Below are positions 223-2,247 of a stretch of DNA of 64,000 nucleotides, piece after piece. Both the position numbers and the translations under genes were made by a program. The stretch's first letter is position 1. Each line of letters opens with the position of its first letter. Under the pieces are notes generated by a model that was given only the letters and a program-made list of their open reading frames with translations, was not told the origin of the DNA and made no database searches. Source of the DNA: Anaeromyxobacter sp. (GTDB taxonomy: Bacteria > Myxococcota > Myxococcia > Myxococcales > Anaeromyxobacteraceae). The stretch is taken from contig JASGJN010000017.1 of the NCBI GenBank assembly GCA_049840735.1, positions 448,001 through 512,000 on the forward strand, written 5' to 3'.

Positions 223-2247
223 ATGCCCTTCCGCTTCCAGCCCGGCGCCGAGGACCCGACCACCCGGGCCCGCCGCGGCGTCTTCACCACCCGTCACGGC
301 CGCGTCGAGACCCCGGCCTTCATGCCGGTCGGCACCCGCGCCACCGTCACCGGCCTCACCCCCGGCGACCTGGTGGCGCTCGACGCCCAGATCATCCTGG
401 GCAACACCTACCACCTGCTGCTCCGGCCCGGCCCGGAGGCCTTCCGCGAGCTGGGCGGGCTGCACCGGTTCATGCACTGGGACCGGCCCATCCTCACCGA
501 CTCGGGCGGCTTCCAGATCTTCTCGCTCTCCGAGGACCGGACCATCACGGAGGAGGGCGCCACCTTCCGCAGCTACATCGACCAGCGGCGCCACGTCCTC
601 TCCCCCGAGTCGTCGATCGCCATGCAGACCGCGCTCGGCTCGGACGTGATGATGGTGCTGGACGTCTGCCTGCCCTCCACCTCGCCGCGCCCCGAGCTGC
701 GCGCCGCCATGGACCGGACCCACCGCTGGGCGCTGCGCAGCCTGGCGGCGCGGACCGATCCCGAGCAGGCGCTCTTCGCCATCGTGCAGGGCGGCCTCGA
801 TCCCGAGCTGCGCGACGCCTCGGCCCGCTTCCTGCGCGAGCACCCCTTCGACGGCTTCGCCATCGGCGGCGTGGCGGTGGGGGACACGCGCGAGCAGCGC
901 GCCGAGGTCATCGCCCGGGCAGCCGAGCTGCTCCCGCGCGACCGGCCGCGCTACCTGATGGGCGTGGGGACGCCGCCGGACCTGCTCGAGGCCGTGGCCC
1001 ACGGCGTCGACATGTTCGACTGCATCATCCCCACCACCATGGCCTGGCAGGGGACCGCCTTCACCTTCTCCGGCCGCGTCCGCCTGACCCGCACCGAGCT
1101 GCGCCTGGCCGACGTGCCGCTCGACCCGAGCTGCCCCTGCCCCACCTGCCGCGACCACTCGCGCGCCTACCTGCACCACCTGTTCAAGTGCCGCGAGCCG
1201 CTGGGGCCGCGCCTGGTCTCGATCCACAACCTGCACCACTACCTGGAGCTGATGCGCCGCGTCCGCGCCGCCATCGAGGCCGGCACCTACGCCGCCTTCG
1301 CCCGGGCCACGCTGGAGGCGCTCGACCGCCACGAGCACGACCGCTCGGCGCGGCCACCGGGGCGGCGCGTCGAGACGGTCGCGCCGGCGCCGGTCCGCGA
1401 GGTGGTCCAGCCGCTCGATCCCGCCGCGGCCAGCGCCGGCGCGCGCTTCGAGCTGGTGCGGACCTCGCAGGGCGCGGCCGCGGTGCGCGACGCCGAGGCC
1501 GGCGAGGTGATGCACCCGGTGATCGGCCCGGCGGTGGAGTCGGAGCGGCTCTACGTGGCCCAGGGGCGGCTGCGCGAGCGGCTGGCCCAGCCCGGCCCGC
1601 CGCTGGTGCTGCTGGACGTTGGGCTGGGGGCCGGGTCCAACGCGCTGGCCGCGCTGCGGGCGGCCCGGGCCGCGCCGGCGGACGGGCGGGCGCTGGAGCT
1701 GGTCAGCTTCGAGCGCGAGCGCGGCGCGGCCGAGCTGGCCGCCTCCGAGGCCGGCGTGGCCGCGCTGGGGCTCTCGGCCGAGGACGCCGCGGCGCTCCGC
1801 GCCCTGCTGGTCACCGGCCGGCACGAGGAGCCCCGCGCCCGCTGGCGGCTGGTGGAGGGGGATCTGCTGGAGACGCTGCCGGCGCAGGCGGTGGAGGCCG
1901 AGCTGGTCTTCTGGGATCCGTTCAGCCCCAAGGCCAACCCGGCGCTCTGGACCCAGGCCGCCTTCGAGGCGGCGCGGGCCCGCTGCGGCCCGCGGGCGCT
2001 GCTGCTCACCTACAGCACCGCCACCGCCATCCGGGCCGCGCTGCTGCTGGCCGGCTTCTTCGTGGGCGTGGGCGACGCCTCCGGCCCCAAGGAGCAGACC
2101 ACCGCCGCCGCCACCGACCCGGCGCTGCTGGAGCGCCCGCTGGACGCGCGCTGGCTGGCGCGCCTGGCCCGCTCCTCGGCCCCCTTCCCGCCCGACGCGC
2201 CGCCCGACGCGCTGGAGCGGATCTCCGCCCACCCACAGTTCAGGTGA
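223..2247 (+). CDS. tgt: tRNA-guanine transglycosylase (divergent) fused to a C-terminal MnmC/MnmD-type SAM methyltransferase
   Basis: N-part: [38 protein letters not shown]...HN Zn site. C-part: [31 protein letters not shown] (MnmC methyltransferase motifs). Confidence 0.92.

Follow-up and report, generated by a model that had tools for sequence, protein, structure and literature searches.

A paralogous tRNA-guanine transglycosylase coupled to an MnmC2-family methyltransferase in Myxococcota: a candidate RNA-modifying pair

Two families of wobble-base enzymes are the closest described relatives of the gene reported here. The first is bacterial tRNA-guanine transglycosylase (TGT; the enzyme Tgt, EC 2.4.2.29; TIGR00430; structures 1ozm and 2ash), which exchanges guanine for 7-aminomethyl-7-deazaguanine (preQ1) within the sequence U33-G34-U35. 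The second is MnmC2, or MnmD (the Aquifex DUF752 protein, 3vyw; the N-terminal domain of E. coli MnmC, 3awi), which methylates the aminomethyl group of 5-aminomethyluridine (nm5U) to give 5-methylaminomethyluridine (mnm5U). In a stretch of 64,000 nucleotides of Anaeromyxobacter sp. DNA (assembly GCA_049840735.1, contig JASGJN010000017.1, positions 448,001 to 512,000; hereafter the window), one gene, which we call tgt2-MT, encodes domains of both kinds in a single protein, P0001. Its TGT half (TGT2) resembles bacterial Tgt in fold, in about 50% identity, in D102, D280 and the Zn site, in its score on the equivalog model and in the guanine/preQ1 pocket (D156, C158, Q203, G230, V233 and M260). 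It differs in being a second copy that lies outside the queA-tgt-yajC arrangement and has a near-obligate MnmC2-like methyltransferase partner, and in that R286 and R289 are missing, position 282 is I, and positions 240 and 304 have gained arginines. The methyltransferase half shares with MnmC2 the class I S-adenosylmethionine (SAM) fold, motif I, the D-x-F-x-P motif and PF05430; unlike MnmC2, it scores about 80 bits where the NF033855 cut-off is 136, has no fused MnmC1 and is coupled to a TGT paralogue.

Two further systems invite comparison. In the eukaryotic QTRT1/QTRT2 enzymes, as here, a TGT paralogue is retained beside the main enzyme. QTRT2 is non-catalytic, whereas TGT2 keeps D102 and D280 in 43 of the 43 paralogue rows of our alignment, and the eukaryote-type QTRT1-like rows of that alignment retain R286 and R289. 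The second system is phage DpdA with DpdM, which, in the relevant passages of PMC10516641, provides the same product chemistry as we propose below, insertion of preQ1 by a TGT-family enzyme and then N-methylation. According to the same passages, DpdM is a DUF3109/YkgJ metal-cluster protein and the target is DNA; here, by contrast, a PF05430 protein is paired with a tRNA-type TGT rather than with DpdA, and we found no dpd-like neighbours around the tgt2-MT pair.

The architecture itself is already catalogued, and it is the function of the fusion that we infer. A preprint ('Alternate routes to mnm5s2U synthesis in Gram-positive bacteria', bioRxiv 10.1101/2023.12.21.572861) names the TGT/MnmC2 fusion (PF01702 with COG4121/PF05430) in one comparative-genomics sentence, alongside four other kinds of MnmC2 fusion; its main-text passages on the fusion give no function, no remark on a TGT paralogue and no residue analysis. 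Our literature search returned no earlier description of an MnmC-linked TGT paralogue and no relevant work on Myxococcus queuosine, and the paralogues discussed in the pertinent passages of PMC5699537 are of the DpdA type only. Where copies of the fused protein are named in databases, the name is that of Tgt, and the protein passes the Tgt equivalog model, so that these genomes seem to encode the same enzyme twice, with no mention of the methyltransferase half. We put forward, as a serious but tentative possibility, that TGT2 inserts preQ1 into RNA at a site outside U33-G34-U35 and that its partner then N-methylates the aminomethyl group.

A second TGT joined to a methyltransferase domain

A sequence-only reading of this DNA had described one uninterrupted reading frame of 674 residues joining a TGT to a methyltransferase, and the open reading frame, Pfam and NCBIfam results all agree with it. 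The frame runs from an ATG at 223 to a TGA at 2245-2247 with no internal stop, and homologue matches begin at residue 1 of P0001. The gene and its parts are as follows.

223..2247, forward strand: tgt2-MT gene, stop included, encoding the 674-aa fusion protein P0001 (open reading frame, Pfam, NCBIfam, homologues)
223..1332, forward strand: TGT domain, residues 1-370, TIM barrel with Zn subdomain, predicted to be catalytically intact (Pfam TGT, PDB-chain alignment, predicted local distance difference test score (pLDDT) ~90)
1333..1437, forward strand: linker, residues 371-405, Ala/Pro/Arg-rich, predicted disordered (pLDDT <50 at 371-395 and 400-405; predicted template modelling score (pTM) of the whole model 0.58)
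1438..2244, forward strand: MnmC2-family SAM-dependent methyltransferase domain, residues 406-674 (PF05430, NF033855, 3vyw alignment)

The Pfam TGT family (PF01702) covers residues 15-366 (E 8e-148), TIGR00430 gives 448.2 bits and so passes its cut-off of 306.75, and the TGT chains of T. maritima and Z. mobilis align with 347-349 bits. In the C-terminal half, Methyltransf_30 (PF05430) matches residues 538-630 (E 9e-17; 61.6 bits against a gathering score of 22), and residues 48-261 of Aquifex MnmC2 (3vyw) align with an E value of 9e-13, covering the whole MnmC2 fold; E. coli MnmC (3awi) and 2qy6 align to this domain as well. The methyltransferase motifs are present, namely motif I for SAM, SFE, GD and FWDPFSP..NP.LW (the D-x-F-x-P element), and among 24 fused proteins of 37-77% identity D465, G467, G469, N473 and D565 are invariant, with P566, F567 and S568 nearly so. 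NF033855, the equivalog-domain model for MnmC2, gives 79.5 bits with the whole protein (residues 425-616) and 80.7 bits with the domain alone, both below its cut-off. An AlphaFold2 model built on 24 fused homologues contains two well-folded domains (pLDDT ~90) and no confidence in their relative orientation. Judged by these comparisons, tgt2-MT encodes a bacterial-type TGT, predicted to be catalytically intact, that is tethered through a disordered linker of about 35 residues to an MnmC2-family methyltransferase.

The disordered tether, the lack of a confidently fixed domain arrangement and the occurrence of the two enzymes as separate proteins in Myxococcaceae would also suit another order of events or another base: free preQ1, or some other amine-bearing base, could be methylated before insertion, or the methyltransferase could act on a different amine of TGT2-bound RNA. 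We regard this as very unlikely, in view of a TGT2 pocket that is of the preQ1 type and not enlarged at the aminomethyl site (L231, A232, V233 and C158) and of the known MnmC2 enzymes, which use tRNA-bound bases.

We next consider whether the fused enzyme is the only TGT of its genome, an assembly that is 94% complete in 26 contigs. There are two TGT matches, the fused gene and a separate copy on contig C13, which sits in the classical queA-tgt-yajC-secD order, scores 484.8 bits on TIGR00430 and retains ATVK, PTRTARNG and VGEE, that is, K52, R286, R289 and E235. With 448.2 bits for TGT2 and 484.8 bits for the canonical copy, TIGR00430 cannot separate the two. The fused gene lies between a DTW-domain gene and a hydrolase gene, outside the queA-tgt-yajC-secDF setting. 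By sequence and position, the fused TGT is a second, paralogous bacterial-type TGT, and the presence of a canonical tgt with all four residues kept favours the idea, already advanced in the sequence-only reading, of a modification outside the queuosine pathway.

Residue changes in the fused family

TGT residues are numbered as in Z. mobilis TGT, by HMMER alignment of P0001 to chain 1ozm. The codons of P0001 that matter most here are these.

349..351, forward strand: codon of T43 (Z. mobilis K52), ATVK changed to ATVT, a lineage-specific change (1ozm alignment, motif count)
499..501, forward strand: codon of D93 (Z. mobilis D102, LTDSGG), kept (alignments; D in 43 of 43 paralogue rows)
883..885, forward strand: codon of D221 (Z. 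mobilis E235), a lineage-specific change (1ozm alignment, motif count)
1018..1020, forward strand: codon of D266 (Z. mobilis D280, the nucleophile, DMFDC), kept (alignments)
1036..1047, forward strand: codons of T272-M-A-W275 (Z. mobilis R286..R289), in helix 269-275, site of the clade-wide loss of two arginines (alignments, motif count, model)

Four substitutions had been named from the sequence by itself, K52 to T43, R286 to T272, R289 to W275 and E235 to D221, and the 1ozm alignment bears out every one; the two arginine changes fall in the PTRxxRxG helix, within the Z. mobilis stretch DCVLPTRSGRNG. The accompanying claim that the catalytic aspartates, base pocket and Zn ligands are intact also agrees with the alignments: P0001 has D102 (LTDSGG), D156 and C158 (LDVC), Q203, GG-AVG and D280 (DMFDC), and the Zn ligands of the protein (C304, C306, C309 and H335) are invariant in two alignments (A2 and A3). 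A further change, L231V, is, like E235D, confined to this Anaeromyxobacter lineage. The structural passages of PMC5395182 place R286 in helix alphaB, beside the pocket, and K52 in a loop-helix motif of the dimer interface.

Are these changes peculiar to one genus, or do they mark a family? More than 120 full-length homologues are 67-78% identical to P0001, all with PF01702 and PF05430, and the named ones are all from Anaeromyxobacter or Anaeromyxobacteraceae. An exhaustive search of 50%-identity representatives yielded about two dozen full-length fused clusters, with identities as low as 40%, and when we searched from P0142, one of the most distant of these clusters, the 120 best hits were all two-domain proteins, with sources in Oligoflexia, Bdellovibrionota, Myxococcales, Kofleriaceae, Candidatus Binatia, Spirochaetota and Opitutaceae. 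The fused form is thus found in several phyla besides Myxococcota. In an unrooted FastTree phylogeny of 150 TGT domains, the methyltransferase-linked TGTs fall in a 44-row set with a support of 100, and in an unrooted quick IQ-TREE run on a random subsample of 51 rows, 19 of 20 methyltransferase-linked rows lie on one side of a branch with a Shimodaira-Hasegawa-like approximate likelihood ratio of 99. The twentieth row, P0245, is a eukaryote-type TGT that a coverage rule mislabelled as methyltransferase-linked. P0245 has 719 aa, carries YPTRTGRFG and ends in a long C-terminal extension unrelated to the methyltransferase that was spuriously aligned to its columns.

We then compared 43 paralogue rows, which include the mislabelled P0245 and the fragment P0135, with 105 canonical rows. 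Conservation of at least 80% in the canonical rows and of at most 15% in the paralogues is found at three positions only: V122, R286 and R289. Position 122 changes from V to A. Position 286 is R in 102 of 105 canonical rows and, in the paralogues, A in 18, K in 10, S in 5, Q in 3, T in 2 and R in 2; position 289 is R in all 105 canonical rows and, in the paralogues, Q in 32, W in 4, E in 2 and A, G or R in 1 each. Eight of the 43 paralogue rows had been chosen for the absence of both arginines, so that for those eight the arginine comparison is circular. Characteristic of the paralogues, and seldom present in canonical enzymes, are R240 (91%), R304 (88%), I282 (84%, where 98 of 105 canonical rows have V), S161 and A122. 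All 43 paralogue rows retain D102, Q203, M260 and D280; D156 and G230 are each retained in 42.

An independent motif count, which is free of that circularity, covered 117 distant fused proteins (3 of 120 had no motif match) and 120 proteins of Anaeromyxobacter type.

Position 286: never R in the 117 distant fused proteins; T, S, A or M in the 120 of Anaeromyxobacter type
Position 289: R in 9 of the 117 distant fused proteins; always W in the 120 of Anaeromyxobacter type
Position 282: I in 94 of the 117 distant fused proteins; no count for the Anaeromyxobacter type
Position 235: E in 117/117 distant fused proteins; D in 120/120 of Anaeromyxobacter type
Position 52: K or R in 111/112 distant fused proteins; T in 115/115 of Anaeromyxobacter type

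Of the 237 fused proteins combined, none keeps R286 and 9 keep R289, and it is the loss of these two arginines that, in the sequences compared, defines the fused family. The expectation that the whole fused clade would lack K52, R286 and R289 therefore held for the arginines and not for K52.

A different account of a diverged TGT paralogue is that it has become a partner subunit of the canonical Tgt, in the manner of QTRT2 with QTRT1, and alters the specificity of a heterodimer. Bacterial TGT is dimeric, and K52, in the dimer-interface loop, is changed in the Anaeromyxobacter lineage. This account is scarcely credible to us, as the catalytic residues are all kept clade-wide, where QTRT2 has lost them, and as position 52 is K or R in nearly all of the distant fused proteins. 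Another idea, in which a catalytically dead TGT2 binds the anticodon as a scaffold for MnmC2, was rejected, since each of the catalytic and guanine-pocket residues is retained in 42 or 43 of the 43 rows.

The groove of TGT2 is remodelled on the nucleotide-35 side, which would also suit the same chemistry on a target other than tRNA, whether rRNA, mRNA or DNA. The TGT relative DpdA acts on DNA, according to passages of PMC5699537, and N-methyl-preQ1 is known in phage DNA, according to passages of PMC10516641. Such a target nevertheless seems quite unlikely to us, given that TGT2 shares about 50% identity with bacterial tRNA TGTs and has retained their Zn subdomain, that no conserved DNA-metabolism or dpd-like neighbour accompanies it, and that the substrate of its partner's MnmC2 relatives is tRNA. 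The upstream neighbour in Anaeromyxobacter, a DTW-domain gene, likewise belongs to a tRNA-modifying family.

Co-occurrence of TGT2 and the methyltransferase in Myxococcota

With the methyltransferase alone (residues 430-674) as query, 228 of 401 sampled Myxococcota genomes contain a match at E <= 1e-5. Twelve of the 228 were judged by eye to be weak hits (E 2e-7 to 1e-16), probably to other MnmC2-like proteins, and were left out. Among the remaining 216 genomes, 211 have at least two TGT matches, 5 have one and 0 have none; among the 173 genomes in which the methyltransferase was not found, 15 have at least two TGT matches, 145 have one and 13 have none. TGT matches per genome are not equivalent to copy number. 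We looked into five exceptions (G100, G184, G292, G392 and G383). One, G383, has fragments, and another, G392, has two canonical-type tgt copies; the first three are taken up below. The G392 genome (L145, L149) is a Myxococcaceae assembly of 92% completeness and 5% contamination in which both tgt genes read PTRCARNG and neither TGT2 nor the methyltransferase is present, and its double tgt may be due to duplication or contamination.

Inspection of 20 sampled loci reveals the pair in three forms: as adjoining halves, as separate neighbouring genes, and unlinked. In Anaeromyxobacteraceae and in families f5 and f14 the halves are directly adjacent, in the same frame in 3 of 3 Anaeromyxobacteraceae loci and in 1 of 4 loci of f5 and f14. 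Most Myxococcaceae instead have a separate methyltransferase gene of about 270 aa directly downstream of TGT2 (L035, L038, L039, L044, L048, L051, L053 and L054), while the methyltransferase has no TGT nearby in L036 and L037 and a TGT 4 kb away in L050. We extended this to 80 named loci drawn from Anaeromyxobacter, Polyangia, Sandaracinaceae, Haliangiales and others, and in 74 of them TGT2 precedes the methyltransferase by less than 700 nt, with 44 in the same frame and 30 in another; of the other six, four are cut off by the end of a contig, one is incomplete and one contains the methyltransferase without TGT2. Altogether, TGT2 and this clade of methyltransferases are inherited together across Myxococcota, and so tight a co-inheritance, whether the genes are fused, adjacent or unlinked, argues for one pathway.

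Proposed function and genomic setting

An intact TGT of the guanine/preQ1 type under purifying selection, partnered by an amine methyltransferase from the family that methylates nm5U34, is most simply accounted for as a two-step writer. In the mechanism that we propose, TGT2 would exchange guanine for preQ1, which QueF could supply (the gene is present in this genome), at an RNA site outside the canonical U33-G34-U35, most likely in a tRNA anticodon loop. The methyltransferase would then methylate the 7-aminomethyl group to give 7-(methylaminomethyl)-7-deazaguanosine, chemistry that would parallel the conversion of nm5U to mnm5U. The methylated product would no longer be a substrate of QueA, and tgt2-MT would be a two-enzyme writer apart from the ordinary queuosine pathway. 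The fuller claim is that a dedicated TGT2-methyltransferase pathway in Myxococcota, Bdellovibrionota, Verrucomicrobiota, Spirochaetota and Ca. Binatia writes this undescribed RNA nucleoside outside U33-G34-U35, for example at G34 of non-GUN tRNAs; it is a possibility about which we keep considerable doubt. The least likely element is a further elaboration of the base, in Anaeromyxobacter, by the adjacent DTW-domain enzyme. The sequence-only reading had proposed preQ1 insertion into a non-GUN tRNA or another nucleic acid, followed by N-methylation. Paralogy, the arginine loss and co-inheritance speak for that proposal, while the local character of K52T and E235D and the lack of a separate MnmC2 speak against it.

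Several observations weigh against the two-step writer, and a first group of them would suit an ordinary MnmC2. The fused gene is the sole PF05430 match of the genome; a separate mnmC/mnmD or mnmM was not found in genome searches with PF05430 and PF06962; a GidA/MnmG-like match of 289 bits is present; and the tRNA genes of the usual MnmC2 clients are encoded (Lys UUU, Glu UUC, Gln UUG, Arg UCU, Gly UCC and Leu UAA). Thus, of the separate tgt and mnmC/mnmD genes whose presence the sequence-only reading had left to be checked, the former was found and the latter was not, and, with an MnmG-like gene present, the methyltransferase could be the cell's MnmC2. The polypeptide would then hold two independent wobble enzymes: an ordinary MnmC2, forming mnm5(s2)U34 from the nm5(s2)U34 made by MnmEG (the ammonium route, as in Aquifex), and a second G34 transglycosylase for the same GUN tRNAs or a subset of them, the fusion reflecting shared anticodon-loop substrates or co-regulation. 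The best PDB relative of the domain is indeed Aquifex MnmC2, TGT2 passes the Tgt equivalog model, and the relevant sentence of the bioRxiv preprint 10.1101/2023.12.21.572861 treats the fusion as an MnmC2 fusion. What two independent enzymes leave unexplained is the near-obligate second TGT (211 of 216 genomes), even where the genes are separate or unlinked, and the loss in TGT2 of two arginines that all or nearly all canonical enzymes keep. The methyltransferase domain also falls below the MnmC2 cut-off of NF033855, and 173 of 185 Myxococcota genomes without the pair contain no relative of it (E <= 1e-5 with this query). We judge this explanation, the strongest competitor of the two-step writer, to be unlikely.

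A second group of observations that tell against the two-step writer concerns the residues. K52T and E235D are, in the sequences compared, local to the Anaeromyxobacter lineage rather than traits of the family. The preQ1 pocket is unchanged in TGT2, so that the TGT domain itself gives no pointer to a new base. We take K52, R286 and R289 to be the residues that read U35, as a 2003 paper on a TGT-RNA structure reportedly described. In the literature search, no open text stated that K52, R286 or R289 contacts U35, and the passages of PMC5395182 hold only statements on the pocket and the helix. The phage N-methyl-preQ1 cited as a precedent in the sequence-only reading supports the product and not the enzyme, since the DpdM of those PMC10516641 passages (DUF3109) is unrelated to the methyltransferase here.

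The last group concerns the genome survey. QueF occurs in 208 of the 216 methyltransferase-bearing genomes and in 376 of all 401; being near-universal in the phylum, it shows compatibility with the pathway and does not discriminate. Because related genomes do not count as independent cases, the number of events is smaller than the co-occurrence counts suggest, and one of the 401 genomes in these tallies (G196) is unpublished. G100, G184 and G292 are drafts that have a true TGT2 (PTKMAQQG) and no methyltransferase hit. Finally, we infer the substrate, the site and the product from sequence comparison and co-occurrence.

No candidate target tRNA stands out in this genome, whose set of tRNA genes is ordinary. 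ARAGORN reported 68 tRNA-like genes in this high-GC sequence, several with odd anticodon loops and one with a four-base anticodon (ctgg), and many of the 68 are probably false positives.

The immediate neighbours of tgt2-MT are the following two genes.

1..205, forward strand: 3' part of the DTW-domain gene (PF03942, E 5e-32; whole gene at L004:13597-14205)
2253..3236, forward strand: alpha/beta-hydrolase gene (PF00561; NF008218 229 bits, below the cut-off of 267)

The DTW-domain gene starts about 400 nt before the window, stops 17 nt before the ATG of tgt2-MT and is the weakest of three DTW matches in the genome. The DTW family comprises tRNA-modifying enzymes, including tRNA aminocarboxypropyl transferases. 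The adjacency recurs in L045 and in only 10 of the 80 named loci, all of Anaeromyxobacter type. On the other side, the ATG of the hydrolase gene lies 5 nt after the tgt2-MT stop, and the two are probably co-transcribed; the hydrolase follows the pair in L045 and in 23 of the 80 named loci (3 of them partial), again all of Anaeromyxobacter type. Clustering of open reading frames from 21 loci revealed no third component conserved across families, the DTW and hydrolase genes being lineage-specific. An Rfam scan of 3.5 kb around the tgt2-MT start detected no riboswitch; its sole match was a chance hit to a CRISPR repeat (E 0.88). Further into the window, a respiratory or redox run on the reverse strand (4871-9619) encodes an NrfD-type membrane subunit, a multihaem cytochrome c and a B12-binding radical SAM protein, and is followed by a CLC chloride channel and then an M1 aminopeptidase, with no relation to tgt2-MT.

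Should the methyltransferase be an ordinary MnmC2 after all, the fusion would show how Myxococcota complete mnm5s2U and would raise the question of what a retargeted TGT does there. If instead the two-step writer is real, it would be a previously undescribed modification of RNA, several large soil phyla would possess a further branch of 7-deazaguanine metabolism, and the 7-deazaguanine chemistry of the wobble position would reach beyond the four queuosine tRNAs. It would also mean that a TGT has been retargeted in nature through a handful of residues, which would be relevant to TGT-based RNA labelling.

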